Assembly: GCA_001303125.1 (NCBI GenBank)
Contig: LJNE01000001.1
Coordinates: forward strand, 81,737 to 145,736
Length of the DNA: 64,000 nucleotides
Source: Parcubacteria bacterium DG_74_1
Lineage (GTDB): Bacteria > Patescibacteriota > Minisyncoccia > Minisyncoccales > DG-74-1
Reading direction: 5' to 3'
The notes beneath the pieces are model-generated. The model saw only the letters and a program-made list of their open reading frames with translations, made no database searches and was not told the DNA's origin. A program made the translations under genes and the position numbers. Positions 10,257 through 25,977 of the stretch are shown in pieces; position 1 is the first letter of the stretch; each line of letters opens with the position of its first letter.

Positions 10257-11401
10257 TTTAGATATTGTTTAATGGTTAGTTTTTTACCTCTTTTTAGTTG
10301 GGGACCGAGGTCACTCCTAAATTTCTTATTCGACAATACGGTTCCTTTAATACAAATCGAACTGGCGCCCCCGCCGTAGCCGTTAATACCAATCTCTTGA
10401 CCTTTTCTGGCCTTTTCTAGAACTCCAGCCAAGGAAATAAAAATAGAAGAGGTATAAGAGTTCCCAATATAAGGATTATATTTTAAACCCGGACTGAATT
10501 TCTGGCTAAAAAATTCTTTAAAATCTGGAGTTCCTCTAATCTCGTCAAGTTCTTTTTTGTATCCAGCGAAAAGGCTTGGTTTTTTAAGACATTCAGCCAG
10601 GGTAAGATGTTCTTTTTGTTTCAGCCTTTCGTGCCGCCAGAAAAGAGCCGCCACCCACTCAACGATTTTGGGAAAAGGTGTGTGCATAATAAAAAAATCA
10701 AATGTCTCCAAAAGCCCCTCCTTTTTTGTTTTTAAAAATTTTAGATTATTTTTCTTCCAGTCTTCTAGGGCTCTTTTTTGACATTCTAAAAAAGCCGGCT
10801 TGGTTAATGCTCCATCAACTCGAGGAAAAGGATAAGAAGAAGACGGAACCCTAAAATCATCAATATCGGCCGCATACTGACCTAAGTTCTGATAATCCAA
10901 ACTTAAGATTTTTGGTTTGTTCTCAATTCTCATAGCTACAGCCGCGCAGCCCTGGGTTACTTCGGCCTTAGGATCTTCTTGACGGTAAATAGAGCGGTCA
11001 ATAGAGAGAGCGACAGCCGGCTTACCAGAATTAGCCTGGTTATACTCACAGGCTGAAATTAATGCCTGTAATCCTCCCAAACAGGCAAATTTATATTGAA
11101 AAGGAACGCTTTTTAGTCCTAATTTATGATTAAGAATTTTGACACTCAGGGGCTTAGAGGCGTCTGGATCCGATTCAGTACCAATATAAAACCTTTCTAC
11201 GTCTTTGAAGTTAATTTTCAAAAGGGCTTCTACGGCCAGTTCAGTAATAGAAATTTTATAAGGAACCCTGGCCTCAACCACGCCTAAACCCTTACCGGTA
11301 TAAGCTGAAGGAATTTTTCTTTTTTTTGCCAATTCTCCAATTGAAATGAAATGTTTTGGAACGGCAATGCCGATTTGTGAAATTCCGACCTGAGAAACCA
11401 T
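10238..11401 (-). CDS. mvaS: HMG-CoA synthase
   Basis: Catalytic-Cys block KFACLGGLQAL, then HTPFPKIV and GNSYTSSIF. Confidence 0.85.
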   Translation of the reverse strand: MVSQVGISQIGIAVPKHFISIGELAKKRKIPSAYTGKGLGVVEARVPYKISITELAVEALLKINFKDVERFYIGTESDPDASKPLSVKILNHKLGLKSVPFQYKFACLGGLQALISACEYNQANSGKPAVALSIDRSIYRQEDPKAEVTQGCAAVAMRIENKPKILSLDYQNLGQYAADIDDFRVPSSSYPFPRVDGALTKPAFLECQKRALEDWKKNNLKFLKTKKEGLLETFDFFIMHTPFPKIVEWVAALFWRHERLKQKEHLTLAECLKKPSLFAGYKKELDEIRGTPDFKEFFSQKFSPGLKYNPYIGNSYTSSIFISLAGVLEKARKGQEIGINGYGGGASSICIKGTVLSNKKFRSDLGPQLKRGKKLTIKQYLKWRESQ

Positions 11402-11405: not shown

Positions 11406-11912
11406 TTATTTTTTTCGACTTTTTATTTTTCTAAGAATAATTTTAAACCAGGGCGTATATTTTTTTGGATTTTTTTTAATGTCAGCTTTCAAGTCCTTTA
11501 ATTTGACCCACCGCCAGTCAGCCACCTCTTTTTTGCTGGGCTTAGGGCTTCCATCAAATTTACCGAGAAAAACATGGTCAAATTCATGTTCAATAAGACT
11601 ATCAAGCTTTGCTTTATAGACAAAATTAAAAACTTCTTTTAATTTACAATTAATACCCATTTCCTCTTTTAACCTCCTTTCGGCTGCCGATTTTACTTCT
11701 TCTCTTGGTCTAGGATGAGAACAGCAGGTGTTTGTCCAGAGTCCCGGAGAGTGATATTTCGATTTGGTTCTTTTCTGGATTAGGGTTTCTCCTTTTTTAT
11801 TAAACAGGAGTACGGAAAAAGCCCGATGTAGTTTTCCCACCCGATGGGCTTTCATTTTTTCTTCTGTCCCAATAGTTTCGTTTTTTTTGTTAACTAAAAC
11901 AATCCTCTCCAC
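11406..11912 (-). CDS. idi: Isopentenyl-diphosphate delta-isomerase, type 1 (Nudix)
   Basis: HRAFSVLLFN, WTNTCCSHP and EHEFDHVF motifs. Confidence 0.85.
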   Translation of the reverse strand: MERIVLVNKKNETIGTEEKMKAHRVGKLHRAFSVLLFNKKGETLIQKRTKSKYHSPGLWTNTCCSHPRPREEVKSAAERRLKEEMGINCKLKEVFNFVYKAKLDSLIEHEFDHVFLGKFDGSPKPSKKEVADWRWVKLKDLKADIKKNPKKYTPWFKIILRKIKSRKK

Positions 11913-11918: not shown

Positions 11919-13016
11919 CTAAGTCTTTCTCTCAATTAAATAATTAATGAATTCTTCTAATTTGGCTTTTGCCTTTGAATCTGGTAATAATTTCTCGGCA
12001 TCCTGCCAACTCCCTCTAACGATTTTCCGGGCCACTTTTCTAGCATAATCTATGCTACCATATCTTTTAATAATTTCTATCGCCTCATTCCTCTCTTTCA
12101 AATTATTGGTGTGTTTATTCAGTATTTCTAATAACCTTTTCTTGTCTTTTGAGCTGGCTTTCTTCAAGGCATGAATAACAATTAAGGTTCTTTTGCCTTC
12201 CTTAATATCGTTACCAAAACTCTTGCCAAATTTTTTTCTTTCTTTCCCCTCTAGGGCCAGGTCTAGAATATCATCTTGGATCTGAAAGGCGACTCCAATG
12301 GCTTCTGCCATTTTACCGATATTTTTAGCTAGTTTATCGCTTTCTCCCGAGAGAACGACTGCCATCTTGGCGGCTAAACGGGAAAGGCAACCGGTCTTGA
12401 AAGCGCACATTTGTAAATACTCCTTTTGATTAATTTTCTTAACCTTTCCCTTATGCCAATAGATGTCGGTACCTTGGCCAAGGTGAATGTTGATCATGTC
12501 CTGGGCATAAATTTTGTAAGCTTTAGCTAAAACTTTAGGTTTAAATTTGTTTTTGGCTTTTATTAAGGTTAGCAAGGGTAGAAAATAGAGGAAATTTCCA
12601 GCATTGACGGCTACATCAACTCCGAAAACTCTATGCAAACAGGGTTTCCCCCTTCTCAACTCCCCCTGATCTTCAACGTCATCAGTTATAATAGACCCGT
12701 CATGCGCCAACTCAGGGATAATCAAAAAATCTTTAACTTTTCTGATATCGCCGCCGACAGCTTCGGTAATCAATAAAAACAAAGTTGGTCGCCACCTTTT
12801 TCCGCCTCGGTCCAAAAACTCATAGATGGGCCTAATAAGAACTTCTTGAGCCGCTTTTTGACTATAAAAATAACGAGGTTTTCCGAAAGTAAACTCTAGC
12901 CATTTTTTGGTAGCCTTCCGCGGGAGATATTTTTCAATCAGCTTGTCAATCTCCGGTTTTTTCTTTTCTAAATAATCCTCTATCCCCTCTTTCTTTATTT
13001 TGGTTTGACTAGGCAT
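11919..13016 (-). CDS. Polyprenyl diphosphate synthase (chain length not determinable)
   Basis: Asp-rich motifs ITDDVEDQGELRRGKP and FQIQDDILD. Confidence 0.85.
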   Translation of the reverse strand: MPSQTKIKKEGIEDYLEKKKPEIDKLIEKYLPRKATKKWLEFTFGKPRYFYSQKAAQEVLIRPIYEFLDRGGKRWRPTLFLLITEAVGGDIRKVKDFLIIPELAHDGSIITDDVEDQGELRRGKPCLHRVFGVDVAVNAGNFLYFLPLLTLIKAKNKFKPKVLAKAYKIYAQDMINIHLGQGTDIYWHKGKVKKINQKEYLQMCAFKTGCLSRLAAKMAVVLSGESDKLAKNIGKMAEAIGVAFQIQDDILDLALEGKERKKFGKSFGNDIKEGKRTLIVIHALKKASSKDKKRLLEILNKHTNNLKERNEAIEIIKRYGSIDYARKVARKIVRGSWQDAEKLLPDSKAKAKLEEFINYLIERKT

Positions 13017-13020
13017 AAAC

Positions 13021-14163
13021 TCAGTGTTTAGAGCGAGCGTATCCTTTATAAATCAGGATAAGCTTAAGAAGCTTGAAAATATTTTTTCTCAAATTTGGTT
13101 TTGATAAAAAATTAGGGAGGGCAGAAAGGTTTTTCAAATAAAAAATATCTCCCCCGGCTTCTTCTAAAACTTCTCCAACTTCATTCAGGCTTTTATTGTT
13201 AAGCGAGTATAGAATTTCCTGGACCAAAAATAAATTTTCATTAAAACAAGAAAGGAATCTAATTTTTGATGGATAAGAGTCGGTATTCCCTGAAAGGATA
13301 CACTTGGCCGCCTGCTCTCCAGCAATCATGGCATTGCCAACCCCACCACCTGTTATCGGATCAACCATAGCACCGGCATCACCAACTAAAAGCGCATTAT
13401 CTTTTACTAATTTTATAGGTTTCTTTACTAGCGGGATCACGCCGCTGATATTCTTCAAAAGGCGACAATCGCCAAAATCTTTTTTAATGGTGTTTTCCAT
13501 AAAATCTTTGAGCACGGCCTGAAGATTTATTCTTCCTCCAGAGCCCAAGCCGATATTGGCCGTGTTTTTTGATTTAGGAAAAATCCAGACATAACCTGAA
13601 GGACATCTTTCTTGGTTGAAATAAAGCTTCATGGTATGACAATCCATTTCTTTTTCAACCTCAACCAAATATTGAAGACATGGATAAATCTCTACTTTCT
13701 CTTGAAAAACCTTTCTTCTAATGATTGAAGTAGGACCGTCGGCGCCAATAAGATATTTTGATTCAAAATTATCGCCATCCTGCGTTTTTACCCGCCAAAC
13801 TTCCCCCTCTTTTCTGACGTCAGTTACTCTTTTTTGAAGCCGAATTTCTGCCCGACATTGTTTGGCTAGAAATTTTTCAAAATTTACCCTGTCTAAAATA
13901 TAGCCTCCTTCTTTTGTTGAAAGATTGGCGGTTTTGCCATTTGGCAAAACCGCTTGACTCTTATTAATGGTAGCGGAAATCCAGTTCGGATCGGGCTGAA
14001 TACCAAGTCTATCTAAAAAATATCTGGCTAATCCTTCGGCGCACTGAACTGGCTTACCGATTTCTTCTTTCTGTTCCAAGATTAGAGCATCATCCAGATC
14101 TCTCCCGCAGATTAAGCCACCAGGACCAGCCCCAATGATAATTGTTTCAAAATTTTTTTTCAT
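13021..14163 (-). CDS. Geranylgeranyl reductase family flavoprotein
   Basis: IIIGAGPGG dinucleotide fold and the LVGDAGAMVDPITGGGVGNAM block typical of GGR/digeranylgeranylglycerophospholipid reductases. Confidence 0.75.
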   Translation of the reverse strand: MKKNFETIIIGAGPGGLICGRDLDDALILEQKEEIGKPVQCAEGLARYFLDRLGIQPDPNWISATINKSQAVLPNGKTANLSTKEGGYILDRVNFEKFLAKQCRAEIRLQKRVTDVRKEGEVWRVKTQDGDNFESKYLIGADGPTSIIRRKVFQEKVEIYPCLQYLVEVEKEMDCHTMKLYFNQERCPSGYVWIFPKSKNTANIGLGSGGRINLQAVLKDFMENTIKKDFGDCRLLKNISGVIPLVKKPIKLVKDNALLVGDAGAMVDPITGGGVGNAMIAGEQAAKCILSGNTDSYPSKIRFLSCFNENLFLVQEILYSLNNKSLNEVGEVLEEAGGDIFYLKNLSALPNFLSKPNLRKNIFKLLKLILIYKGYARSKH

Positions 14164-14190
14164 ATTGGCAGATTATATAAATGTCACGAG

Positions 14191-15015
14191 TCACCACGAG
14201 TAGAGCGTTGATGCCACTATAGCAGCATAAGAGAGGATCCCATAATAAGTATCTATCATTTGAAAGTTTCTCCTAAAGAGGAACAGAAAGAGAAAGAGGC
14301 AACTTAAAATTAAGAATAAAAATAAAAAATTTTGAGAAAGCATAAAGAAGGCCGGAAAGAGGGCCAAGGGATAAAAAAAAGCTAGGTACTTTAAGAGGTT
14401 TTCTGATTTTTTATAACCAAGGAAACAGACAGTAGTTTGCAGACCAGCCTGGAAATCTGATCGATAATCTTCTAAATGATTTCTTGTTTCTAACATAACT
14501 GACAAATAAAAAATAGAAAAAGTAACTAAATAGTGAAAGGTGGTTAATCTTGAACCAAAAACTAAAAAGGGGAAGAGAAAAATTAAGACTCCAGCAAAAA
14601 GGCCATGAGAAATTAAATCCAAAAAGGGTCTTGATTTCATTCTTAAGGGCGGGGCGGAATAAAAAAACCCGATCAAGCCGGCAATCAAAACGAACAAAAA
14701 TATCTCTGCCCCGAAGTAACTTGACAGAAACAAAGCTAAAATACCAGGAGAGACCGAAAAAAGAAAGTTTTTCTTATTCTGAACCAAAAGATCCTTTACC
14801 TCTCCCTTTTCTTTATCTTCTTTAATATCGAAAAAATTATTAACCGAAAAACCAAAAGCTAAAAGCAGAACGACAATGACCCAAAAAAGTAAGATGCCTA
14901 GGGGCGGTGCGAGAAAACCTTTAGCAACAACGAACCCTAAAACACCCAATCCAAACCAAGCTCGCCAGTCTTTCATTCGATAATAATTAAGGAAAGATTT
15001 AAAATTGAGTGACAT
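14191..15015 (-). CDS. UbiA-superfamily prenyltransferase (polytopic membrane protein)
   Basis: NNFFDIKEDKEKG (NxxxDxxxD) and LEDYRSDFQAG second Asp motif. About 8 hydrophobic segments. Confidence 0.75.
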   Translation of the reverse strand: MSLNFKSFLNYYRMKDWRAWFGLGVLGFVVAKGFLAPPLGILLFWVIVVLLLAFGFSVNNFFDIKEDKEKGEVKDLLVQNKKNFLFSVSPGILALFLSSYFGAEIFLFVLIAGLIGFFYSAPPLRMKSRPFLDLISHGLFAGVLIFLFPFLVFGSRLTTFHYLVTFSIFYLSVMLETRNHLEDYRSDFQAGLQTTVCFLGYKKSENLLKYLAFFYPLALFPAFFMLSQNFLFLFLILSCLFLFLFLFRRNFQMIDTYYGILSYAAIVASTLYSW

Positions 15016-15755
15016 TAGATGGCTAAGCCGCCGTCGATGTTAACTACTTCACCGGTAATGAAACTAGCCTCGTCTGAAGCTAGAAAGGCGACCAAACTGG
15101 CAACCTCTTCCGGTTTGCCAAACCGTCCCAAGGAAGTCAATTTTAAAACCGTCTGCCTAACCTCTTGAGGTACTGTTTCTGTCAATTTTGATTCAATAAA
15201 CCCTGGAGCCACGGCATTAACTCTTATCCCCAACTTTCCGACTTCTTTAGCTAGGGATTTGGTAAAACCAATAATACCGGCTTTGGCGGCAGCATAATTT
15301 GCCTGACCAAAATTTCCTCTTTGACCCACCAAAGAAGAAACACTAACAATCTTTCCCTGGCTCTGGATGAGTAAGGGTAAGGCAGCTTTTGAGCAATTAA
15401 AAACTCCTGTCAAATCGATATCAATCACTCTTTGCCATTCTTCTTTGGTCATTTTAGCTAGGGTTCGATCGGCACAAATTCCAGCATTATTTACCAAAAC
15501 ATCCAATCGGCCAAACTCTTTATGGATTTGCTGGACCATTTTCTCCACTTCTTCTAGCCTTGAGACGTCAGCAAAAAAATACTTTGCTTCGGCTGTTTGT
15601 TTTTCAATTTCTTCCTTAACTTTCTTTAAATTTTCTTCCTGACTCCCAATATCATTCAGGGCAATTCTCCCTCCCAAAGAAGCGAACTTTAAAGCGGTAG
15701 ACCTGCCAATTCCCTGAGAAGCGCCGGTAATTAAAATAACCTTATCTTTAAACAT
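15015..15755 (-). CDS. fabG: 3-oxoacyl-ACP reductase / SDR
   Basis: TGASQGIGRSTA, NNAG and YAAAKAG motifs. Confidence 0.8.
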   Translation of the reverse strand: MFKDKVILITGASQGIGRSTALKFASLGGRIALNDIGSQEENLKKVKEEIEKQTAEAKYFFADVSRLEEVEKMVQQIHKEFGRLDVLVNNAGICADRTLAKMTKEEWQRVIDIDLTGVFNCSKAALPLLIQSQGKIVSVSSLVGQRGNFGQANYAAAKAGIIGFTKSLAKEVGKLGIRVNAVAPGFIESKLTETVPQEVRQTVLKLTSLGRFGKPEEVASLVAFLASDEASFITGEVVNIDGGLAI

Positions 15756-15757
15756 GT

Positions 15758-16840
15758 CTAATATTTTTCAACTTCGTATTGAACTTCTTTAATTTTTCTG
15801 CCGACAATCGGAATATCATCAATTTTAACCCTTTTAAGATATTCTGGCAATTCTCTTGTCATAGTAACTTCAGCGAAAATTCTATCTAAGTTTAAAGGGT
15901 TAAAGCTGCCAAAAATTAGATTCAGGTGGGCGACAAACTGATCCGTTTTTTGAATCGATTGAGCCTCGGCCAGAGTAAAATATCGTGGTAAAACTTTATT
16001 TAAATTTTCAATAATTTGTTCTTCGGAGTGCAGATACTTTAAACCAAGGTAATTTTCCTTTTTCAAAAACTTTAAAATATTTTCGCTGGCTGAAGCTTTC
16101 CCGATTTTTAAAATTGGCAAGTTGGCAATTAAGTCGGCCTTGAAAACTTCTTCGGAAATCTCAAAACTAAAATCTCCTTCTCCCTTCTTAATAAAATCGG
16201 TTTTAGCCAGATCTAAGGGTAAAATTCTATAATTTTGACAAACCTTGAGTAGTTGGGATTTTTGAGCTGCGGCCTCGATAGGCGTTTCGTCAAAACTTTG
16301 GCCAGCAACCTTAATGTTCTCCAATCTCACCCCTCGTCCCATTAAATATTTAATAAGGCTTTCTAAGAATTGAGGGCTAGTGTTTTCAGCAAAATGAGGA
16401 TGCCTCGGTAAAACTAAGGTCGGTAAAATCAAGATCTTAAAGTCCTGCCTAACATCAATTCCGTCAAATAATTCAACCACTTTTTCTATTCCTTCTAGAA
16501 CATCGTACTTTATCCGCCAAACGGCGACCGTGTTACTCTCGGTTGTTGTTTCAATTTTAAGCTCCTCACCGATTCGGTATTCTTCAACGCTTTTCCAGAC
16601 CCATTTATTCCCTTTTTCATCTTCCAAAACCAAAACAAAATAGGGAATTTTAGGATGAAACATTGTTGGAATAGTCACTCTAGAGACTCCAATTACTTTA
16701 ACTTTTTCAGACTTTATCTTTTCTAATGCCGAAAAACACTCCGGACATTTTTCAATCGGATACTGCCAAACTTTTTTACATTTTTGACATTTATAGAACA
16801 TGGTATAATTACTTCTATATGAAAACTTATTTTTTGCCAA
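15758..16840 (-). CDS. DUF35-like Zn-ribbon/OB-fold protein fused to a C-terminal domain of about 240 aa (DUF362-like by my recollection)
   Basis: CQKCKKVWQYPIEKCPEC ribbon followed by an OB-like segment. The C-terminal half begins KILILPTLVLPRHPHFAENTSPQF. The start may be M14 at 16801. Confidence 0.55.
   Translation of the reverse strand: MAKNKFSYRSNYTMFYKCQKCKKVWQYPIEKCPECFSALEKIKSEKVKVIGVSRVTIPTMFHPKIPYFVLVLEDEKGNKWVWKSVEEYRIGEELKIETTTESNTVAVWRIKYDVLEGIEKVVELFDGIDVRQDFKILILPTLVLPRHPHFAENTSPQFLESLIKYLMGRGVRLENIKVAGQSFDETPIEAAAQKSQLLKVCQNYRILPLDLAKTDFIKKGEGDFSFEISEEVFKADLIANLPILKIGKASASENILKFLKKENYLGLKYLHSEEQIIENLNKVLPRYFTLAEAQSIQKTDQFVAHLNLIFGSFNPLNLDRIFAEVTMTRELPEYLKRVKIDDIPIVGRKIKEVQYEVEKY
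16801..16809 (+). promoter_or_regulatory. Extended -10 (TGgTATAAT) 9 nt upstream of the DUF359 ATG
   Basis: tggtataat at 16801-16809, ATG at 16819. Confidence 0.5.
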
Positions 16841-17316
16841 AAGAGATAAGGCCGGAATTAAGAAAAATCTGGGGCATACCTCTTTTTAATGGAGAGGAAG
16901 AAGTTCTTAACAAGTTCCAGCAATTCGCCCAAAAAAAGAGGTTTAAAACGATAATTACCGTGGGTGATTATTGCTCTTTTGTTTTGCCTTCTGATATCAA
17001 GATTTTTGACGGAAAAATAAAGAGAGAGAAAATAAGAAGATTACTAAAATTCTCTCTTCGCTGTAATAACCCACCAGGAACTATTCAAAAGGGAGTCTGG
17101 CCGGTTATTAGAAAAGCGATTAAAAATAAGGAAAATGTTTTTATTGAAGGAGAAGAAGATCTTTTGGTTATCCCTACGGTTTTGCTCTCAGAAAAGAATA
17201 CGGCTGTAATTTACGGCTTTCCTGAAAAAGGGGTTTGCCTGATTGAAGTTTCGCCTCGGGTAAAAAAGACCTTTAAAGAGCTTCTTAAGAAGTTTTCCTT
17301 AAAATGTGGCAAGTGA
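16819..17316 (+). CDS. DUF359 / GTP-dependent dephospho-CoA kinase family (archaeal type)
   Basis: FLPKEIRPELRKIWG, IITVGDYCS, IFDGKIKRE, NPPGTI and EGEEDLLVIPTVL blocks match my memory of the COG1909 family. It is the only plus-strand gene in the lipid cluster. Confidence 0.7.
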   Translation: MKTYFLPKEIRPELRKIWGIPLFNGEEEVLNKFQQFAQKKRFKTIITVGDYCSFVLPSDIKIFDGKIKREKIRRLLKFSLRCNNPPGTIQKGVWPVIRKAIKNKENVFIEGEEDLLVIPTVLLSEKNTAVIYGFPEKGVCLIEVSPRVKKTFKELLKKFSLKCGK

Positions 17317-18415
17317 CACTTCCCCCGATTCCGCCAACATTATGACAGAGACCGATTTTAGGACTGTTTCGAACTTGCCGCTCCCCACATTTTCCTCTTA
17401 ATTGACTAACAATTTCATAGACCTGGGCTAATCCGGTAACAGAAATTGGATGACCCTTGGCTTTTAAACCACCTGAAGGATTAACCGGCAATCGACCGTC
17501 TAAATTAACCTTTCCTTGTCGGATTAATTCTGCCCCTTTGCCACTCTCGGCAAATCCTAAATCTTCATAAGAAAATAATTCAACCGAGGTAAAAGCGTCG
17601 TGAATTTCCGCTACTTGAATATCTTCCGGCTTTATTTTGGCTTCTTGGTACGCCTGCTCGGCCGCCAACTCGGTCGCCTGGAAATGCCAGGGCTCTTTTC
17701 TATCAAAGGTTAAAAGATAGTCAGTAGCAAAGCCGGATCCTGAAACTTCGACATCGGTTTTTTCTTTTGTTAAAATCGCTGCTGCCCCTCCATTAACCGA
17801 CAATGAGCAATCCATTAAACGAAAGGGGGAAGCAACAATTGGCGAGTTTTTAATTTCTTCCAGGGAAACCTTTCTTTGGTAGTAATAAGCTCGAGGGTTT
17901 AAGGCAGCATTTTGGTGGTTTTTATAAGCAATCAGGGCTAAATCATCCATAGTGGCGCCATATTTTAGCATGTATTGTTGCCAGACCAAAGCATTCTGAA
18001 CCGGAAAGAGAGTGCCTTCTGACTGCTCAATTACTCTTTCGGTGGCTGATAATATCCAGTGAGTAGTCACCTCGCTTTTGTTGTCAACGAGCTTTTCGCC
18101 GGAAACAGCCAAGATATTCTTGAATTTTCCCAGCCGCAAAGCCGTCCAAAAAGCTACTCCGCCACCAGCGCAAACCGAGGGTGTTTCAATGATCGGAACA
18201 TTTATCTTGAATAAATCAGCAAGTAAAGAAATTTTATGGGTCTGATGTTCTGAAAAACCATCGCAACTTTCCATGCCACTAAAGACAACGGCATCAATAT
18301 CAGAGATTTTCATTTTGACGTCTTCTAAGGCCTCAATGGTCGCTTCATAACAAAACTGCCACCAGGGTTTTTGAGAATAATCAAATTTTGTCATTCCTAC
18401 TCCTTTGATATACAT
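17285..18415 (-). CDS. Thiolase-like protein (archaeal/SCP-x type acetoacetyl-CoA thiolase)
   Basis: IKGVGMTKF N-terminus, active-site region ETPSVCAGGG, C-terminal CHNVGGIGGS. The start was chosen at M27 of the tracked ORF. M34 (18394) has an AAGGAG SD. Confidence 0.75.
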   Translation of the reverse strand: MYIKGVGMTKFDYSQKPWWQFCYEATIEALEDVKMKISDIDAVVFSGMESCDGFSEHQTHKISLLADLFKINVPIIETPSVCAGGGVAFWTALRLGKFKNILAVSGEKLVDNKSEVTTHWILSATERVIEQSEGTLFPVQNALVWQQYMLKYGATMDDLALIAYKNHQNAALNPRAYYYQRKVSLEEIKNSPIVASPFRLMDCSLSVNGGAAAILTKEKTDVEVSGSGFATDYLLTFDRKEPWHFQATELAAEQAYQEAKIKPEDIQVAEIHDAFTSVELFSYEDLGFAESGKGAELIRQGKVNLDGRLPVNPSGGLKAKGHPISVTGLAQVYEIVSQLRGKCGERQVRNSPKIGLCHNVGGIGGSVTCHILRKTS

Positions 18416-18441
18416 ATATAGTATATAAAAACCTGTAATGG

Positions 18442-20229
18442 CTAAACCGTCACCCAGCCAACAAGTAAAGTGCCGGGACCGGCAGCTGCGCAAACTATTG
18501 TTGGCCCTATGGCAATAAAAGAAACTTCGGCGTTTATTTTTTGCTTCAATAATTTTTTAAGGTTCTCAGCTTCTTCGGGCTTATCAGCGTGACCAATAAC
18601 AACTCTGATTTTTCGCCCTTGTTGCCTAATCTTTTTGCTTTCTTTAAAAACCTTTTTAAATAGGGCTTCGCTGGAGCTAGAGGCAAATATCATGCCACCC
18701 TTGCAAACCAGCCCGTCTTTTATTTTCATTAAAGGGTGAATATTTATTTTTTTAATCCTTCTCACCCAGTTAGCTTGGGAATGGCTGATTCTACCGATTC
18801 CTTCTATCCATTTGGGGTCTTCGAAAACAACATAAAGGTGGACATTAGGGATCAACCCACTTAACTCTTCTAAGATTTCTTCAATTTCTCTTTGTTCTTG
18901 AATCATCTCAAGGGCTCGCAAGATTAAAAGAGCTTCTCCTGACGCGGCTGTTAAGGAATCAAAAACGAAAATTTTACTAGGGTCTTCTGACATTTCTTTA
19001 GCCTGAAGGGCAGAGTTGTAACAACCAGAAAGTTTAGAAGAAAGAGTAACGCAAAGGACTTTATCAAACTCTTTAAGTTGTTTTTTATAGGCCTCCAGAT
19101 ATTGTTTAGGATTAATTTGGGTGGTTTTAACGGTGGCTGGAATGCCTCTTTTTTCTGCCTCTCTCATTTTTTGATAAATATTTCCCCCGGGCAAATCCTT
19201 TTCTTCCGGCCAATCATAGCGAATCGGAAGAACTTCAATCCTGTATTTCTCAACAATTTTAGGTAATAACATAGCTACATCGTCTGTGACGATACCGATA
19301 GAAACCCTTCTGACCGATTCCTCGCCGACCACTTCTTTGGCCATATCTTCAAGCCTTAAATCTTGAATTTGACCCGTTTCCCTTATTGACTTTTTTACCT
19401 CATCGGGATAGTCGGTATGAATATGAATTTTGACCTTGTTACTAATCTGGACGATATCTATGGAATTACCTAATTTCTTTAATTTTTCTTTGATTTCTTC
19501 TTCGCTAAATTTAGGATTCTCAACCAAGGCAATAATTTCGTAACGGTGTGATAAAACTTGAATAAATCTTCTAATTTTTTCTGAAGGTTTTACTTCTCTT
19601 TTCTCTTCTTTTTTCTCCCCCTCCAAAGCCTCTAAATAACTTTCCAGAATCATTAAAAACCCCAAACCTCCAGCGTCAACCACATTGGCTTTTCTAAAAA
19701 CTTCCATTTTTTCCCGGGTAGCCAAAAGGGCTTCTCTGGCTTTCTCGGTAGCTGTTTTCAAGATTTCGATGATATTTTTCCCTTTTTCTGCTTCTTCCCT
19801 AAAGGCTAAAGCTGTTGCATCAATAACGTCTAAAATTGTTCCTTCCTTAGGGTTTTGGATAGACTGTCGGGCTCGTTCAGCTCCTTTCTCAAAAGCAACA
19901 GCTAGTTTTTGAGCATTAACCGGATTTTTATCAAGCAAAGGCAGGAAACTGGCCAAAAAACCGACGTAAATTACGCCGGCATTGCCCTGAGCAGTAGTTA
20001 AAGCTCCGTCTAGGGCTGCTTCAGAAACCTCTTTTAAATCTTTAAAATCCTTTTTCCCAACGGCTTCTTTTATCCCTGATAAGGTTTTAGCCAGATTATT
20101 CCCAGTGTCTTGGTCCGGGACAGGAAAGACATTAATTTTATTGATCTGCTCTTTGTTCTTTTCAATCTTCTCGTAGGATAAAAGGAGCATCTTTTTTAAT
20201 TCGGCTTGACTAAGATATTCCATGGCCAA
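18442..20229 (-). CDS. Dak2 (DhaL/FakA-like kinase domain) fused to a DegV (FakB-like) domain
   Basis: The N-terminal half has DQDTGNNLAKTL...QGNAGVI. The C-terminal 280 aa aligns along its length with the stand-alone DegV at 22844-23719 (e.g. QKMREAEKRGI, LSSKLSGCYNSALQAK vs LTSKLSGTYNSACQAK). Confidence 0.75.
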   Translation of the reverse strand: MAMEYLSQAELKKMLLLSYEKIEKNKEQINKINVFPVPDQDTGNNLAKTLSGIKEAVGKKDFKDLKEVSEAALDGALTTAQGNAGVIYVGFLASFLPLLDKNPVNAQKLAVAFEKGAERARQSIQNPKEGTILDVIDATALAFREEAEKGKNIIEILKTATEKAREALLATREKMEVFRKANVVDAGGLGFLMILESYLEALEGEKKEEKREVKPSEKIRRFIQVLSHRYEIIALVENPKFSEEEIKEKLKKLGNSIDIVQISNKVKIHIHTDYPDEVKKSIRETGQIQDLRLEDMAKEVVGEESVRRVSIGIVTDDVAMLLPKIVEKYRIEVLPIRYDWPEEKDLPGGNIYQKMREAEKRGIPATVKTTQINPKQYLEAYKKQLKEFDKVLCVTLSSKLSGCYNSALQAKEMSEDPSKIFVFDSLTAASGEALLILRALEMIQEQREIEEILEELSGLIPNVHLYVVFEDPKWIEGIGRISHSQANWVRRIKKINIHPLMKIKDGLVCKGGMIFASSSSEALFKKVFKESKKIRQQGRKIRVVIGHADKPEEAENLKKLLKQKINAEVSFIAIGPTIVCAAAGPGTLLVGWVTV

Positions 20230-20919
20230 CTATTTGAATTTCTCCTCTAATTCTTTTAGGATTTTACCCGCCAAGTCCTTGCCACCTAAACCGAAAGAAA
20301 GACCCAGGGCAATTGAAATAGTGATTACCACGCCAATAAAAATGACTAAAATTAAAGAGGGAGTTATTTTAAGCTGATAGAGAATGGCTAAAATAGCAAA
20401 AAGCCAGATCGTCCAACGAATTGCCTTGCCGGAAAATCGAGAGTAAGTTATTTTTTCTTTCTTTAAGGTGCCAACCACAATTTTTTGAGAAAAATCAGCC
20501 AAAAAAACAGCTACAAGAAAAATTAAAATAGCAATAAAGATATTGGGATAATAATCAATCACCCTCCATAAGAATTGGCTTAAGGAAGTTAGTCCCAGAA
20601 TTCTAGCGCTTAGAACTTCAGCAGCTATTGTCAAAAAAAGGAGAACGAAAAACCACCTGACTATTTCGCCAAAAAACCTTGGCGCATTAAGGCGAGTATC
20701 AATCTTGGATAGAGATTCTTCTACGCCCATGCCTTTTAAAATCTGATTCAATCTAATTCTGCCCAGAAAATCGGCGGCCCTTTCTCCTAGCCATTGCGAA
20801 ACAACCCAGCCAATCAAAAAAAACAAAAAGGCTCCAAGGGCACAAAGCGGATAAGAAACCGGGGTCTGTATCAAGTATTTATAAAGTTCTTCCCACATAA
20901 ATAATTTATCTGCTACCAT
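20230..20919 (-). CDS. Integral membrane protein, unknown function
   Basis: 229-aa ORF with about 5 hydrophobic segments, tightly coupled to its neighbours. Confidence 0.5.
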   Translation of the reverse strand: MVADKLFMWEELYKYLIQTPVSYPLCALGAFLFFLIGWVVSQWLGERAADFLGRIRLNQILKGMGVEESLSKIDTRLNAPRFFGEIVRWFFVLLFLTIAAEVLSARILGLTSLSQFLWRVIDYYPNIFIAILIFLVAVFLADFSQKIVVGTLKKEKITYSRFSGKAIRWTIWLFAILAILYQLKITPSLILVIFIGVVITISIALGLSFGLGGKDLAGKILKELEEKFK

Positions 20920-21470
20920 TTGGCACGATTAAGCTTCAAATGATAGCCGATTCTATTAGTAGTTATGTGCAATAAAAAGGTTAAAATAAAAAGGGTTATC
21001 CAGGTTATTATCTCAATTTTTAAAATTGCTGTCAAGAAAATGGCTGAACCTATAACATAGTTCGTTTGATCAAAGGGAATAAACTTGGCGCCCGGCTCCA
21101 TTTTCAGTCTTCGTTTAATAAAGGCAAAAAGTAGATCACCGAAAACTGCACCAACTGAAATCAGAAAGCTAAAAATAAAAATATTAATCTGTTCGTAGTT
21201 TAATAGGGAAATTCTTTGGACCGCTGGAAATTGATAAAGATACTTTTGGATCAAGGCGACCGAAAAACCGACCCCTATCCCTAATATCGCGCCCCGCCAA
21301 GATTTATGGCTACCGAAAATCGGCTGACCTAAAAATTTTTTCCCGGAATCAATGTCCTTGTCTAAAAAATTAAAAAGATTAGCCTTTCTTGCCAAAGGAG
21401 GAGTCATGTTGGTAAAGTAAGCGGGCAGAAAAAAGTAGAAGCAGGCTAAGATATATGTTAGAATGTTCAT
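20913..21470 (-). CDS. CDP-archaeol synthase-like (CarS / DUF46 family) membrane protein
   Basis: FLPAYFTNMTPPLARK...IDSGKKFLGQPIFGSHKSWRGAILG matches the PAYxxN...G..K(T/S)WRG signature I recall for CarS. 185 aa, polytopic. Confidence 0.6.
   Translation of the reverse strand: MNILTYILACFYFFLPAYFTNMTPPLARKANLFNFLDKDIDSGKKFLGQPIFGSHKSWRGAILGIGVGFSVALIQKYLYQFPAVQRISLLNYEQINIFIFSFLISVGAVFGDLLFAFIKRRLKMEPGAKFIPFDQTNYVIGSAIFLTAILKIEIITWITLFILTFLLHITTNRIGYHLKLNRAKW
21456..21464 (+). promoter_or_regulatory. Extended -10 (TGtTAGAAT) 6 nt upstream of the PHP-gene ATG, embedded in the CarS-like coding sequence
   Basis: tgttagaat at 21456-21464, ATG at 21471. Confidence 0.45.
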
Positions 21471-22181
21471 ATGAAGTGCGACTTACACTGCCATACTGGT
21501 TATTCCTATGATAGTACGGCCAAGCCAGAAGAAATGGTTGAAGCTGCGCTTCAAAAAGGACTAAACTGTCTGGCTATTTGTGACCATGGAGAAATTAAGG
21601 GCGCTTGGGAGGCAGTCGAATACGCCAAAGATAAGCCTATTTTAATTATACCGGGGATTGAAATAAAAAGTAAGGAAGGAGACATTTTGGGATTGAACAT
21701 TGAAAAAATTATCCCTAATAAATTGTCAGCTAGGGAAACAATTAAAATAATAAAGAGATTAGGAGGACTAGCAGTTATTCCCCACCCTTTCGGCTGGTTT
21801 TGCTCTTTCAGGGGAAACCTAGAGAACCTTATCTCTGATATAGATGGGTTCGAAGAATCTGACTCTTCTCGCGGCCCAGACAGAACCTTGGCAATCGAGG
21901 TTTTGAATGCTTCAATATTCGGCCGTGGCAACAAAAAAGCCTTGATTTTCTCTCAAAAATACAGCCTCCCCAAAACGGCTGGATCCGACGCCCACTTCCC
22001 GAATTTTATTGGTAGGGTTTATTTAGAAATCCCTGGTAATAATCTTTCTATAGAAGGCGTTTTAAATCACATAAAAAAGGGGGGTGGCAAAATCTACGGG
22101 AAAGAAGCTGGCTTTTTTGAAAAAGCCATCGATCACACAAAACGAAACCTCGCTAAAATCAAACACAAGACACATTCGTAA
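21471..22181 (+). CDS. PHP-domain metal-dependent phosphoesterase
   Basis: MKCDLHCHTGYSYDS, ICDHGE and GSDAH motifs. Confidence 0.75.
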   Translation: MKCDLHCHTGYSYDSTAKPEEMVEAALQKGLNCLAICDHGEIKGAWEAVEYAKDKPILIIPGIEIKSKEGDILGLNIEKIIPNKLSARETIKIIKRLGGLAVIPHPFGWFCSFRGNLENLISDIDGFEESDSSRGPDRTLAIEVLNASIFGRGNKKALIFSQKYSLPKTAGSDAHFPNFIGRVYLEIPGNNLSIEGVLNHIKKGGGKIYGKEAGFFEKAIDHTKRNLAKIKHKTHS

Positions 22182-22270
22182 ACCAGGCCCGAACAAAACG
22201 AAGACAAAGCGAGAGATAAACGCAAGACGTTCAGTAATCATTCATATTAATTCGTAAAATTATTAAAATT

Positions 22271-22870
22271 ATGTTGGAGGAAAAAAGAGAGAAATTTAAA
22301 AAAATTTCCAGCTGGACAGGAAATATTTTCTCTAAACTCGACTTAGCCCCTAACCAATATACTCTCATCTCGCTTGCTCTTGTCTTAGTTGCTTTTTATT
22401 TTTTATTCAAGGAAAAATTGATTGGGGCCTTAATTTTTTTCTTACTGGCTGCCTTTTTAGATTTCATTGACGGCGCCGTAGCAAGATTTTTGCAAAAGGA
22501 CACAAAAAAAGGCGCCTATTTAGATACTATCTGTGACCGTTATGTTGAAGCAATTATTTTGCTTGGTTTTTTGTTTTTGGATTTGCCTAAATTTCTTTTA
22601 TCGGCGGAAATTTGGATTTTTTTGGCTTTCTTGGGCAGCTTAATGACGACTTATGCTAAGGCAGCTGCTAAAGAAAAGGGGTTAATTGAAGCCGAAATTA
22701 AAAAAGGCCTTTTCGGTCGGCCAGAAAGAATAATCTTAATCTCCTTAGCTTTACTTTTAGGAATTTTTAATCTCTCTTGGGTAATTTACCCAATTGTCGT
22801 CTTAGCTGTTTTTTCTAATATTACCTCTCTCCAGAGAATTTTTCTAAACCTCGCTCCAGGCCAAAACTAA
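22271..22870 (+). CDS. CDP-alcohol phosphatidyltransferase
   Basis: DFIDGAVARFLQKDTKKGAYLDTICDRYVE, i.e. the DG(x)2AR(x)8G(x)3D(x)3D signature. Confidence 0.8.
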   Translation: MLEEKREKFKKISSWTGNIFSKLDLAPNQYTLISLALVLVAFYFLFKEKLIGALIFFLLAAFLDFIDGAVARFLQKDTKKGAYLDTICDRYVEAIILLGFLFLDLPKFLLSAEIWIFLAFLGSLMTTYAKAAAKEKGLIEAEIKKGLFGRPERIILISLALLLGIFNLSWVIYPIVVLAVFSNITSLQRIFLNLAPGQN

Positions 22871-23719
22871 AGCATCGGGGCCAACTAGTACTCCCAAGAC
22901 GTTATCAATCAAGTTTATAAAAACGACCTCTGCTTCTCTCGGCTCTCCTTCTATCATTCCTCTTAACCTTTGAGCTCCTTCTAAATCATCACCATGAGTT
23001 ATGGCTACGCAGATTTTTTTTCTTTGGTCGCGTAACTTTTTGGTTTTTGCTTCGAAATCGTGGAACAGGCCAGTAGGAATATCTTTGGCTCCAGTCTTTA
23101 TACCAATAGCCTTTACTGTCCCTTTTTTTATGCCGAGTATTGGCCTGAGTCCAAGTTTCTGCATTCTCCTCACCCAACTGGCTAGAGTATGGGAGAGCCT
23201 ACCTGAAGCTTCTATCCATTTAGGGTCTCTAATCATAGCAGCCAAACGAACCTTAGGAACGAAATCATTTAGCTCTTTAACAATTTCTTCTATTGTTTTG
23301 TTCATTTCAATTAAATCAATTGTTCTAAAAACTAAAAGTCCTTCGCCGCAAGTAGCATTCAAGGAGTCAATGATAAAAATTTTCTCTCCCTGCAGCCCCA
23401 GAATGTTTTTTGCCTGGCAAGCTGAATTGTAAGTACCCGAAAGTTTTGAAGTCAGGGTAATACAGACAATTTTATCAAATCTCTCTAGCTGTTTTTTGAA
23501 TGCGTCTAAAAAATCTTTAGGAGACGGTTGAGAAGTTTTGCCAAAACTTTTTATCCCTCTTTTTTCTGCTTCTCTCATTTTTTGAAAAGTATTTTGGCCA
23601 GGCAAATTCTCTAAATCTGGCCAGTCCATTTTAACAGGGACGGTAGCTATTTGATATTTTTCAGTAATTTCTGAAGGTAAGTCTGCCCCTTCATCAACAA
23701 CTAAGCCAATTTTTTGCAT
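22844..23719 (-). CDS. DegV family fatty-acid-binding protein (FakB-like)
   Basis: IGLVVDEGADLP, TSQPSP and LTSKLSGTYNSA. Paralogous to the C-terminal half of 18442-20229. Confidence 0.8.
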   Translation of the reverse strand: MQKIGLVVDEGADLPSEITEKYQIATVPVKMDWPDLENLPGQNTFQKMREAEKRGIKSFGKTSQPSPKDFLDAFKKQLERFDKIVCITLTSKLSGTYNSACQAKNILGLQGEKIFIIDSLNATCGEGLLVFRTIDLIEMNKTIEEIVKELNDFVPKVRLAAMIRDPKWIEASGRLSHTLASWVRRMQKLGLRPILGIKKGTVKAIGIKTGAKDIPTGLFHDFEAKTKKLRDQRKKICVAITHGDDLEGAQRLRGMIEGEPREAEVVFINLIDNVLGVLVGPDALVLAWSEV

Positions 23720-23723: not shown

Positions 23724-24407
23724 TTAGATTACTTGCCAGCCTCGAGTGCTGGCGGTCTTTAATAATTCTTTGTCCGGCTCAACAGCCACCGGATTACCGA
23801 CTAATTCTAATATTGGTAAATCAAAAATACTATCCGAGTAGGCAAAACTTCCCTGGAAGTCTATCGCCAGATTGTTGTCGGTTAAAAATTGCTTCACTTT
23901 TTCAGCTTTTCCCTGGGCAAAACAAAGAGGAGGGATTATCTTGCCGGAAAACTTATTCTTAACAATTTCTAGTTCGGTGCCAACAGCGAAATCGATATTG
24001 AGTCGACTTGAAAAAACTTTAATTAAATCTTGAAAACTGCCGGAAATTAAAACAATCAAATAGCCATCTTCTTGATGTTTTTTGAGCCTTTCAAAAGCAT
24101 TCTTTTTCAGGGTCGGTAAAAGGTAATCATCGGTCAGCCAATCAAAAATTTCTTTTGCTCTCTTAATATCTATTCCTTTCATCAGCCGAGCCATATCCTT
24201 GCCCCATCTTTGATAGTATTTTTTAGTAGAAATAAGCCCTACTTTCCAAAAAGGAGTTAAGACAGAATTACTAACCAAAAACCAAAAAATAGAAAAAAAC
24301 TTTTCTCTCTTTTTAAGATAATACTTCAATAATCCAGACCAGAGATGGCTGCTGACCAATGTCCCGTCAAAATCAAAAAGAGCAATTTTAACTCTAGAAT
24401 TCTTCAT
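23724..24407 (-). CDS. HAD-IB family hydrolase
   Basis: IALFDFDGTL motif I, ISGS motif II region, SDSIFDLP motif IV region. Confidence 0.65.
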   Translation of the reverse strand: MKNSRVKIALFDFDGTLVSSHLWSGLLKYYLKKREKFFSIFWFLVSNSVLTPFWKVGLISTKKYYQRWGKDMARLMKGIDIKRAKEIFDWLTDDYLLPTLKKNAFERLKKHQEDGYLIVLISGSFQDLIKVFSSRLNIDFAVGTELEIVKNKFSGKIIPPLCFAQGKAEKVKQFLTDNNLAIDFQGSFAYSDSIFDLPILELVGNPVAVEPDKELLKTASTRGWQVI

Positions 24408-25018: not shown

Positions 25019-25195
25019 TTTCAAATTTTAGATTTTTAAATACTTTTTTAACTTTTATCGCCTCGCGGGTGCGGCAAAACGGGGGCGATATTCCGCGCAC
25101 GAACCTCGCGGAAATAAAATCAGAAATTCTTTTCAAAATAGGTTCTAACTAATTTCAGTATCCTCCACGCTCCTGTATTGACAAATACGGGAATG

Positions 25196-25965: not shown

Positions 25966-25977
25966 TTAAACTTAACC

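Follow-up and report, generated by a model that had tools for sequence, protein, structure and literature searches.

Predicted archaeal-type phospholipid enzymes in a conserved membrane-lipid gene cluster of a Parcubacteria bacterium

Archaeal-type lipid genes at the locus

A 64 kb stretch of DNA of Parcubacteria bacterium DG_74_1, referred to as the window and used for all numbering, contains a run of tightly packed minus-strand lipid genes, many of which are separated or overlap by only a few bases. Genes for a trans-prenyl diphosphate synthase, a geranylgeranyl reductase (GGR)-family flavoprotein, a UbiA-family prenyltransferase, a CarS-like cytidylyltransferase and a CDP-alcohol phosphatidyltransferase lie there among mevalonate and bacterial acyl-lipid genes. 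Judged by their profile and structure matches, these five enzymes are of archaeal type, and the region, as predicted from gene content and order, forms the central part of a supercluster for membrane lipids that spans about 25-35 kb and is conserved within the lineage of this member of the candidate phyla radiation (CPR). Families were assigned with Pfam and NCBIfam profiles and with the best Protein Data Bank (PDB) matches, NCBIfam figures being scores set against the curated cut-off. L-numbers (L007, L011 and so on) denote the related contigs and loci that were compared, and neighborhood counts refer to 80 metagenome loci, each centered on the CarS-like gene. All of the genes named in a first-pass annotation of the window were recovered in place as open reading frames (ORFs) with matching family scores, and the motifs that it quoted are all present.

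In the order of transcription, the 5' end of the region comprises PlsY, a HAD hydrolase, DegV/FakB, the CarS-like gene, an MscS-TM-like gene, FakA-DegV and a thiolase, with the CDP-alcohol transferase and a PHP-family gene on the opposite strand between DegV/FakB and the CarS-like gene. The middle consists of DUF359 (opposite strand), DUF362, a FabG-like short-chain dehydrogenase/reductase (SDR), UbiA, GGR and the trans-prenyl synthase. The 3' end is formed by IDI-1, HMG-CoA synthase (HMGS), HMG-CoA reductase (HMGR), a GHMP kinase, two inserted genes, a second GHMP kinase, diphosphomevalonate decarboxylase (MVD) and FabZ-like, FabK-like and PlsC-like genes. Coordinates below refer to the minus strand unless the plus strand is named.

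The trans-prenyl diphosphate synthase (11919-13016) matched Pfam polyprenyl_synt with 218.9 bits and resembles archaeal geranylgeranyl diphosphate (GGPP) synthases. Its best PDB match was 1wy0, the GGPP synthase (GGPPS) of P. horikoshii (185 bits), followed by the archaeal structures 5jfq and 4dhd and then by eukaryotic GGPPS. The score remained under all equivalog cut-offs (IdsA, 218.5 against 468; GGPP_syn, 169 against 500). The first and second aspartate-rich motifs (FARM and SARM) are DDVED and DDILD, respectively, and the residues at positions -4 and -5 before the FARM are small (S, G), which we take to be a trait of type-III GGPPS. We infer that the enzyme would make C20 chains.

The adjacent flavoprotein (13021-14163) belongs to the GGR family, as had been proposed. 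It exceeds the subfamily cut-off of TIGR02032 'GG-red-SF' (190.4 against 158.8), matches the catalytic domain GGR_cat with 62.1 bits and contains the FAD and YxWxFP motifs (GAGPGG, LVGD...GGG and YVWIFP). The only solved relatives at E<1e-5 are the digeranylgeranylglycerophospholipid (DGGGPL) reductase of T. acidophilum (3oz2, the best match, 117 bits) and S. acidocaldarius GGR. The protein scored under the DGGGPL reductase equivalogs NF041160 and NF041080 (123.7 against 780 and 114.9 against 580). Family membership is thus supported, and the equivalogs do not assign a substrate.

The UbiA-family prenyltransferase (14191-15015; Pfam UbiA, 71.6 bits) is placed in a DPANN/AfUbiA-like subfamily that is designated UbiA(w). 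It contains the motifs N59xxxD63xxxD67 and E182-D183xxxD187 as well as Y119...K127. N59, D63, D67, D183 and D187 align with N62, D66, D70, D183 and D187 of the M. jannaschii digeranylgeranylglyceryl phosphate synthase (MjDGGGPS), although the motifs are common to other UbiA families too. The best curated match of any kind was PRK12875 (48.7 against 205). When 185,579 species genomes (one per GTDB species) were searched, the relatives were Patescibacteria (75-37% identity) and then directly archaea: Aenigmatarchaeota, Woesearchaeota, Altiarchaeota, Pyrodictiaceae, Thermofilaceae, Bathyarchaeota, Hadesarchaea and Syntrophoarchaeum. Apart from a few metagenome-assembled genomes (MAGs) deposited simply as 'bacterium', these genomes yielded no relatives in further named bacterial phyla. 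In a rough neighbor-joining (NJ) tree without bootstraps, the CPR UbiA(w) clade was nested inside a DPANN-rich clade. The clustering with quinone or heme prenyltransferases that the first-pass annotation had allowed for was not seen.

A function of UbiA(w) in quinone, heme or chlorophyll synthesis was rejected. The family profile gave 25.6 bits against chlorophyll synthase and 15.6 bits against 4-hydroxybenzoate prenyltransferase, it did not match MenA, COQ2 or CtaB structures, and the NCBIfam MenA and ChlG scores were at most 36. No quinone or heme genes were found in the window, and the JGI label '4-hydroxybenzoate polyprenyltransferase' is generic.

The CarS-like protein (20913-21470), a member of the family of CTP:phosphatidate/archaetidate cytidylyltransferases, matched Pfam CarS-like with 104.8 bits (cut-off 22) over positions 2-175 of 175. 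The identification made in the first pass holds at this level, since the match is well above the cut-off and full length and the protein is nearer to CarS than to CdsA. It does not extend to the NCBIfam CarS equivalog NF003114, where the score was 134.5 bits against a cut-off of 148 (positions 2-172 of 172; the relative in L116 scored 137.8). The sole meaningful PDB match was ApCarS (5guf); the other rows had E>=0.13 and included no CdsA structure. The match to CTP_transf_1 was just 28.9 bits, again closer to CarS than to bacterial CdsA, and of the core elements GD, FxKRR, G and DQ are kept, with Ala in place of Ser. A change of DQxD to DQxN was considered as a sign of altered function and discarded, the archaeal CarS of L059 having Gly at that position.

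A role of the cluster in carrier-lipid metabolism was also evaluated. Here the GGR-family protein would be a polyprenol reductase and the CarS-like protein a CTP-dependent polyprenol kinase, and UbiA together with the CDP-alcohol transferase would lead to a polyprenyl-phosphate-linked wall precursor. The weak CTP_transf_1 match is in keeping with such a role, dolichol kinase being in the same superfamily as CarS and CdsA. UppS is present in the cluster of many relatives, and archaeal GGR paralogues reduce other polyprenoids, according to PMC10821996. However, the CarS-like protein matches the CarS equivalog over its full length (134.5 bits) and does not align with kinases, the prenyl synthase is of the short-chain GGPPS type, and geranylgeranylglyceryl phosphate synthase (GGGPS) and DGGGPS are encoded in the same cluster of sister lineages. 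A carrier-lipid function is considered very improbable.

The CDP-alcohol phosphatidyltransferase (22271-22870, plus strand; Pfam CDP-OH_P_transf, 72.4 bits) was confirmed on the opposite strand following the CarS-like gene. The full DxxDGxxAR...GxxxDxxxD motif is present. The best NCBIfam match was archaetidylinositol phosphate synthase NF040950 (132 bits, cut-off 180), compared with 87 for phosphatidylinositol phosphate synthase (PIPS), and the best PDB matches were A. fulgidus IPCT-DIPPS (4mnd) and PIPS structures. The enzyme is thus of the inositol-phosphate/archaeal glycerol-phosphate type. The alcohol cannot be named, because the archaeal glycerol-phosphate transferases belong to the same group as the inositol-phosphate type (PMC9385802). 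No inositol-1-phosphate synthase was found in the window.

Between the two genes lies a PHP-family phosphoesterase (21471-22181, plus strand; PHP and PHP_C), a candidate phosphatase for lipid phosphates such as archaetidylinositol phosphate (AIP), archaetidylglycerol phosphate (AGP) or phosphatidylinositol phosphate (PIP). The starts of the CarS-like gene (minus) and of the PHP gene (plus) abut at 21470/21471 with 0 bp between them, so that both promoters must lie within neighboring coding sequence. A membrane protein of 229 aa with MscS-type TM-helix repeats (20230-20919) overlaps the stop of the CarS-like gene by 7 bp, and in 61 of the 80 loci it is placed between CarS and FakA. It may be a lipid-related membrane protein, and a homologue occurs close to UbiA in Nealsonbacteria loci.

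Mevalonate and acyl-lipid genes and conservation of the cluster

The supply of isoprenoid precursors would come from genes in the same cluster. They encode an archaeal-type, acetoacetyl-CoA thiolase-like protein (17285-18493; Thiolase_C_1, 147 bits; NF053570, 269, and NF004720, 326, both under the cut-off), HMGS (10238-11401; Pfam HMG_CoA_synt_C, 61.9 bits), class II HMGR (9102-10256; TIGR00532, 340 against 260), a GHMP kinase that is either mevalonate kinase (MVK) or phosphomevalonate kinase (PMK) (4550-5533; mevalon_kin, 203 against 163), MVD (3561-4553; TIGR01240, 323 against 171), which overlaps this kinase by 4 bp, and the NUDIX-type isopentenyl diphosphate isomerase IDI-1 (11406-11912; NF002995, 174.8 against 127). 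A second GHMP kinase, likewise MVK or PMK (7976-9100), is frameshifted in its 5' part, and its remnant of 250 aa scored 163.9 against 163.05 for mevalon_kin. The full mevalonate route described in the first pass is thus present with respect to its genes, with one kinase disrupted in the window version.

On L007, a contig from another sample that is 99.9% identical to the window, the second kinase is intact (362 aa). Compared with L007, the window has five single-A insertions (8729-9100), located within the 5' part of this gene or immediately before it. The FabK-like NMO gene is also broken in the window, where 109 bp are lacking (about 2180-2300), and intact in L007 (302 aa). The nearly identical contig from the other sample has neither disruption, and both are likely to be assembly or strain noise. 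Two inserted genes (5686-7745), one encoding 339 aa without a family match and the other a 347 aa SAM-methyltransferase-like protein, have a GC content of 0.48 compared with about 0.39 nearby, and both are kept in L007, L008 and L016. The methyltransferase was examined as a prenyl-diphosphate methyltransferase and this was rejected, the PDB giving only generic SAM-methyltransferases at E of about 1e-3.

The presence of the bacterial acyltransferases PlsY and PlsC and of a Fak-like system in the same window was borne out by the family scores. PlsY (24407-25024) scored 182 against 137 for TIGR00023, and the PlsC-like 1-acylglycerol-3-phosphate acyltransferase (1001-1654) scored 96.8 bits for Pfam Acyltransferase and 76.5, under the cut-off of 103, for NCBIfam AGP_acyltrn. 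The fatty-acid kinase is a fusion of FakA (Dak2) to DegV (18442-20229; Dak2, 109 bits; FakA-like_M, 53.5; DegV, 159) and is accompanied by a separate DegV/FakB (22844-23719; DegV, 168 against 99.7). A HAD hydrolase (23724-24407; 92.7 bits) precedes PlsY. The FabG-like SDR (15015-15755) was assigned by its profile matches, and the FabK-like NMO gene and the FabZ-like dehydratase (1651-2913) by Pfam NMO and FabA. FabG-, FabZ- and FabK-like proteins are thus present, and no ketosynthase, FabD or acyl carrier protein was seen, a combination that may represent a partial or unusual fatty-acid system.

A DUF362 protein (15758-16840) has a cysteine ribbon (CxxC...CxxC) within its first approximately 100 residues, for which the best Pfam match, below threshold, was zf-ChsH2 (formerly DUF35_N; E=0.053). 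The gene occurs beside that of the archaeal-type thiolase and may echo the archaeal thiolase/HMGCS/DUF35 complex, although this is a hint only. DUF359 (16726-17316, plus strand), of the archaeal GTP-dependent dephospho-CoA-kinase family, scored 93.5 bits in Pfam and 69 in NCBIfam, under the cut-off. It is kept in the cluster in 23 of the 80 loci and is another apparently archaeal-type gene.

The CarS-like protein is identical to AMJ48_00615 of DG_74_1. In metagenomes of estuarine and SMTZ sediments it is encoded on at least 15 contigs, all of them with the same gene order. The cluster order is also kept in most of the 80 metagenome loci. The contigs with the identical CarS-like protein come from independent samples, and their flanks are bacterial (PNPase, S15, CCA enzyme, T4SS pilin). 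Elsewhere the window contains dnaA, dnaN, rnpA, yidC, the class A penicillin-binding protein PBP1, PNPase, DksA, LysM-M23 and T4SS-pilin-like proteins, and the sharing of the window with dnaA, PBP1, PNPase and others indicates that the host is a bacterium with CPR hallmarks. The GC content is uniform at about 0.38-0.40 across 10-26 kb of the window. When the window was compared with three relatives, dN/dS was 0.03-0.16 for the prenyl synthase, GGR, UbiA, CarS, the CDP-alcohol transferase and PHP, values that are qualitative only because dS is partly saturated. FabG, the thiolase and PlsY had dN/dS similar to that of the archaeal-type genes. The recurrent order together with the low dN/dS indicates that the genes are maintained and that the cluster is functional and inherited rather than a relic or a chimera.

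An artefact would take the form of a chimeric contig, of archaeal contamination or of decaying remnants of a transfer, and two genes are indeed disrupted in the window version, while the taxon labels on related MAGs are inconsistent. However, the disruptions are absent from the 99.9%-identical contig, the order and bacterial flanks recur on the independent contigs described above, dnaA, dnaN, rnpA, yidC and PBP1 lie in the window itself, and the GC content is uniform. An artefact is considered essentially refuted. Furthermore, the suggestion in the first-pass annotation that the bacterium once made such lipids, so that the genes would be a relic, is disfavored by the dN/dS of about 0.1.

Several further features of the region and its surroundings were observed. 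The supercluster extends past the window start (L007 10662-16372; window 1-1000) with genes for the biotin carboxylase, biotin carboxyl carrier protein and carboxyltransferase of acetyl-CoA carboxylase and a biotin-protein ligase. The same extension includes an additional PlsY and DegV, and NusA and an H+-PPase lie in the 10 kb beyond the window start. Several of the related MAGs (L018, L020, L029, L033, L039, L016, L031) are labelled 'Candidatus Saccharibacteria', 'Humimicrobiaceae' or 'Methanobacteriota'. By UbiA and cluster content these MAGs fall with Parcubacteria or DPANN, and the taxon labels are unreliable there. T4SS-pilin-like proteins, one of them 1280 aa long, are encoded at 27687-28244, 38598-44219 and 47990-50836, ranges that include a PrgI-like protein and a TraG/VirB4-like ATPase. 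These genes may represent a CPR-typical surface or conjugation-like apparatus close to the replication-origin genes. Finally, tRNA-Pro (25895-25965) lies inside the 5' end of a listed HAD ORF (25253-25990), and because of this overlap either the real start of the ORF is downstream or its 5' end is spurious.

Cluster types and the lipids that may be made

Three types of cluster were distinguished among the related loci. Type A, represented by L116, L141 and the sister MAG DG_74_3, has a canonical-type DGGGPS together with GGGPS (PcrB). The order is CDP-alcohol transferase, PHP, CarS, Msc and FakA, then UppS (L116, L141) or PlsY (the DG_74_3 population), followed by GGR, the canonical-type DGGGPS on the opposite strand, the prenyl synthase, PcrB and PlsY. 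The type A GGR is 51-54% identical to that of the window. The DGGGPS of L116 and L141 scored 241 bits against the cut-off of 296 for NF009521 and is 23% identical to UbiA(w); that of DG_74_3 is 63% identical to the L116 protein. In DG_74_3, CarS, GGR, canonical-type DGGGPS, GGPPS and GGGPS, and then PlsY, lie in one 8.6 kb stretch (L155, LJNG01000014.1), and a second, window-type UbiA is encoded on LJNG01000004.1 (L026).

Type B (L011 and L118, which are one 144 kb contig, L030 and L156/157) combines UbiA(w) with GGGPS in the order GGR-like (27-30% identical to the window GGR), UbiA(w), prenyl synthase, PcrB, then PlsY or HMGR. Type C comprises the window, L013-L016, L076, L078, L158 and L159 and, in rearranged form, L027 and L029. 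It has UbiA(w) without GGGPS in the order FabG, UbiA(w), GGR, prenyl synthase, IDI and mevalonate genes; in L159 the GGR slot is occupied by a 319 aa protein without a Pfam match.

The CPR PcrB passes the GGGPS equivalog TIGR01769 (205 against 161.6) and is 67-71% identical to Aenigmarchaeota GGGPS, a similarity that suggests a recent cross-domain transfer. PcrB is usually followed by a PlsY paralogue (L011 12713-13372; L116 10501-11166; L154 8917-9543) that is 35-44% identical to the window PlsY where measured, and in L030 and L156 by HMGR instead. Since the clusters of sister Parcubacteria include a genuine GGGPS, the potential for a mixed membrane is real at the level of the lineage.

The genes are consistent with a pathway in which two archaeal-derived modules are joined to a bacterial route. 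The isoprenoid module would consist of the thiolase, HMGS, HMGR, the two GHMP kinases, MVD, IDI-1, GGPPS, the DPANN-type UbiA and GGR, and the head-group module of the CarS-family CTP transferase, the inositol-phosphate/glycerol-phosphate-type CDP-alcohol transferase and the PHP phosphatase. In the bacterial route, scavenged fatty acids would pass through FakA/FakB, PlsY and PlsC to (lyso)phosphatidate. Acetyl-CoA would first be converted to GGPP, and UbiA would then place a geranylgeranyl chain on the free 2-OH of a 1-radyl-glycerol phosphate, the presumed acceptor. CarS would activate the resulting prenyl-bearing phosphatidate, its presumed substrate, with CTP; the CDP-alcohol transferase would attach inositol phosphate or glycerol phosphate; PHP would presumably take off the phosphate; and GGR would saturate the chains. 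The first radyl chain could come from a GGGPS encoded elsewhere or from another 1-radyl-glycerol phosphate, such as the PlsY product, and the stereochemistry of the glycerol phosphate is likewise presumed. This is the most likely of the explanations considered, with a chance of about even that the cluster makes isoprenoid-chain glycerophospholipids beside acyl phospholipids in this manner, UbiA(w) being the enzyme that prenylates the 1-radyl-glycerol phosphate and GGR the one that saturates the chains, while the head group is built by CarS, the CDP-alcohol transferase and PHP.

A putative role of UbiA(w) as a glycerolipid prenyltransferase is favored by the following observations. In type B it sits between GGR and the prenyl synthase-PcrB pair, the exact slot of the canonical-type DGGGPS in type A. 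One archaeal homologue adjoins CarS (L059) and another a CDP-alcohol transferase (the Altiarchaeota contig L044), and the Mg/diphosphate motifs align with those of MjDGGGPS except at D180.

A number of results count against the proposed pathway. UbiA(w) misses every DGGGPS model (NF009522, 41.8 against 353; NF009521, 34.8 against 296), so that a reading of this protein as the canonical DGGGP synthase is not supported. The archaeal UbiA(w) homologues are also under the DGGGPS equivalogs, indicating that UbiA(w) is a separate UbiA subfamily. In DG_74_3 the canonical-type DGGGPS (L155) occurs together with an intact UbiA(w) (L026), the latter beside rpsB, tsf and a release-factor gene. The two enzymes therefore need not be equivalent. 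Many archaea with the UbiA(w) subfamily presumably also have a canonical DGGGPS, which counts against simple equivalence as well. The position of MjDGGGPS D180 is occupied by His in UbiA(w), with an invariant Asn beside it. The UbiA(w) family profile scored 80.8 bits against AfUbiA (4tq3) and 49.7 against MjDGGGPS (6m31), and the acceptor of AfUbiA was never identified (PMC4106721). The CPR CarS has Ala in place of the Ser of the archaeal GD..GSF.KRR motif, and the second GHMP kinase is frameshifted in the window version.

The most direct difficulty concerns the first steps. The 64 kb window and the 10 kb that precede it yielded neither PcrB/GGGPS nor glycerol-1-phosphate dehydrogenase (G1PDH), and the remark in the first-pass annotation that EgsA and PcrB were not seen is upheld by tblastn and profile scans. 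A tblastn search of the window with the PcrB of L011 (E<=10) gave only a TIM-barrel echo in the NMO gene, and no Fe-ADH/G1PDH-type domain was detected in the window or in the Pfam-annotated genes of the related CPR loci examined. PcrB and G1PDH are present in no type C cluster examined, including L013-L016, L076, L078, L158 and L159. None of the best 120 PcrB relatives lies on the type C contigs (146,637; 170,689; ~149,800; 70,035; 61,458; and 46,571 bp), and none of the same 120 is a DG_74_1 entry. The evidence leans towards a loss of PcrB in type C, as judged from these best 120 relatives and from incomplete genomes. The proposal of a mixed membrane therefore stands with respect to the archaeal-type enzymes, their operonic arrangement with mevalonate and acyl genes, the purifying selection and the GGGPS of sister lineages, and is weakened by the missing GGGPS and G1PDH in the cluster of this clade and by the non-canonical UbiA.

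The neighborhood of CarS also counts against an isoprenoid role and bears on a second explanation. Among the 80 loci, the neighbors of the CarS-like gene are MscS-TM-like (61), DegV (50), PHP (48), FakA-DegV (45), the CDP-alcohol transferase (39), PlsY (28) and the thiolase (28). FakA, DegV and PlsY, not isoprenoid genes, are the most frequent partners of CarS, and UbiA, GGR and the prenyl synthase lie within reach of it in few of these loci. The head-group module is thus associated with the isoprenoid genes no more closely than with the acyl-scavenging module. Since its tightest synteny is with FakA, DegV and PlsY, CarS may serve acyl or mixed lipids. In a xenologous replacement, the CarS-like protein, the CDP-alcohol transferase and PHP would act as CDP-diacylglycerol synthase, phosphatidylglycerol phosphate or phosphatidylinositol phosphate synthase and phosphatase for acyl phosphatidate, and GGPPS, UbiA(w) and GGR would make an unrelated prenylated product. 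Consistent with this explanation, no CdsA-type gene was found in any locus examined, UbiA(w) is found at loci of housekeeping genes where lipid genes are lacking (such as L026 and Nealsonbacteria-type loci), and UbiA(w) and the canonical-type DGGGPS are found together in DG_74_3.

However, characterized CarS strongly prefers substrates with geranylgeranyl chains to acyl phosphatidate, and an E. coli cdsA mutant is not rescued by AfCarS (PMC9385802). Moreover, the CarS module is contiguous with the GGGPS and DGGGPS genes in types A and B. A replacement is considered unlikely. In membrane-fraction assays, CarS was indifferent to ether or ester linkages and to a glycerol-1-phosphate (G1P) or glycerol-3-phosphate (G3P) backbone, and DGGGPS takes G3P-based geranylgeranylglyceryl phosphate (PMC9385802). 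If the published specificities hold here, the presence of CarS would imply prenyl-chain lipids, possibly with a G3P backbone. Such a backbone would fit the absence of G1PDH.

The same tolerance leads to a third explanation, a hybrid lipid that would be made without GGGPS in type C. PlsY would form 1-acyl-G3P, UbiA(w) would etherify the sn-2 OH to give 1-acyl-2-prenyl-G3P, and CarS would activate this product, since CarS tolerates ester or ether linkages and either backbone provided that geranylgeranyl chains are present and DGGGPS tolerates G3P. Type C, although without PcrB, keeps UbiA(w), GGR, the prenyl synthase, IDI and the mevalonate genes under purifying selection. The isoprenoid genes are co-clustered with the PlsY and Fak genes, PcrB is usually followed by a PlsY paralogue where present, and the coexistence of UbiA(w) with canonical DGGGPS in DG_74_3 would fit differing acceptor preferences. 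However, prenylation of acyl-lysophosphatidate is not known for any UbiA enzyme, there are no known reports of such a lipid, and PcrB may lie elsewhere in the genome. A hybrid of this kind is doubtful, and equally doubtful is its corollary that the lipid divide would be crossed within one molecule, finished by an archaeal CarS and CDP-alcohol transferase whose genes came from DPANN or host archaea and were taken up by archaea-dwelling bacteria.

Comparison with known systems

Models of early cells and of eukaryogenesis give a central place to the lipid divide, which separates archaeal ether-isoprenoid from bacterial ester-acyl membranes, and organisms with both gene sets are key test cases. 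With respect to this question the finding is notable at the level of the lineage; the window itself lacks the defining first enzyme. The three cluster types may be regarded as a natural experiment on which steps are needed. Parcubacteria were among the phyla with some archaeal-lipid genes in Coleman et al. 2019, an ectosymbiotic association with methanogens has been reported for some Parcubacteria, and a Nealsonbacteria genome paper states 'no lipid biosynthesis pathway'. The literature surveyed contained no description of a bacterial CarS, of the fused supercluster, of the DPANN affinity or of the three cluster types. The CPR lineage appears to hold the most complete bacterial set of archaeal-lipid genes found in that literature, with GGGPS only in sister genomes. 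The approximately 70% identity of GGGPS and the nesting of the UbiA clade in DPANN suggest a recent gene exchange between two radiations of ultrasmall symbionts.

The nearest precedent is found in bacteria of the Fibrobacteres-Chlorobi-Bacteroidetes (FCB) group. In Ca. Cloacimonetes, homologues of GGGPS and DGGGPS, a polyprenyl synthase and GGR occur beside a bacterial lipid pathway, and Villanueva et al. 2020 (PMC7852524) put forward a mixed membrane for these bacteria. CarS was explicitly undetected in Cloacimonetes, and one Parcubacteria genome with both synthases was mentioned (PMC7852524). Like the set in the window, the FCB set has no G1PDH and places archaeal-lipid genes beside a bacterial route. 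Unlike the FCB set, that of the window is found in a CPR host, includes CarS and an archaeal-type CDP-alcohol transferase, has its mevalonate supply in the same cluster and is joined with FakA, FakB and PlsY. The archaeal sequences closest to it come from DPANN and not from TACK archaea, and the window fragment is without GGGPS and has a non-canonical UbiA.

The canonical archaeal pathway consists of G1PDH, GGGPS, DGGGPS, CarS, the synthases AIPS, AGPS and ASS (for archaetidylinositol phosphate, archaetidylglycerol phosphate and archaetidylserine) and GGR. The window matches it at GGPPS, the UbiA step, CarS, the CDP-alcohol transferase and GGR, and differs in being without G1PDH and GGGPS, in a UbiA outside the DGGGPS equivalogs and in the presence of PlsY and PlsC alongside. 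Bacterial use of an ether-forming enzyme of the PcrB family has a precedent in the PcrB/AraM heptaprenylglyceryl-phosphate system of Bacillus. Unlike Bacillus PcrB, the CPR protein exceeds the cut-off of the archaeal GGGP equivalog, shares about 70% identity with Aenigmarchaeota GGGPS and occurs together with UbiA, CarS and GGR. The closest solved relative of UbiA(w) is AfUbiA from A. fulgidus (4tq3, PMC4106721), with which it shares the YSAPP-R-K and DYExDKKAGLK motifs, although AfUbiA falls outside the CPR and DPANN clade in the NJ tree. Complete mevalonate pathways with IDI-1 have been described in CPR clusters, where synteny with a cis-type prenyl diphosphate synthase is typical of CPR and with a trans-type enzyme of archaea (Hoshino & Gaucher 2018, PMC6107057). 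Unlike those CPR clusters, the cluster in the window is syntenic with a trans-type, GGPPS-like synthase and contains UbiA and GGR in addition.

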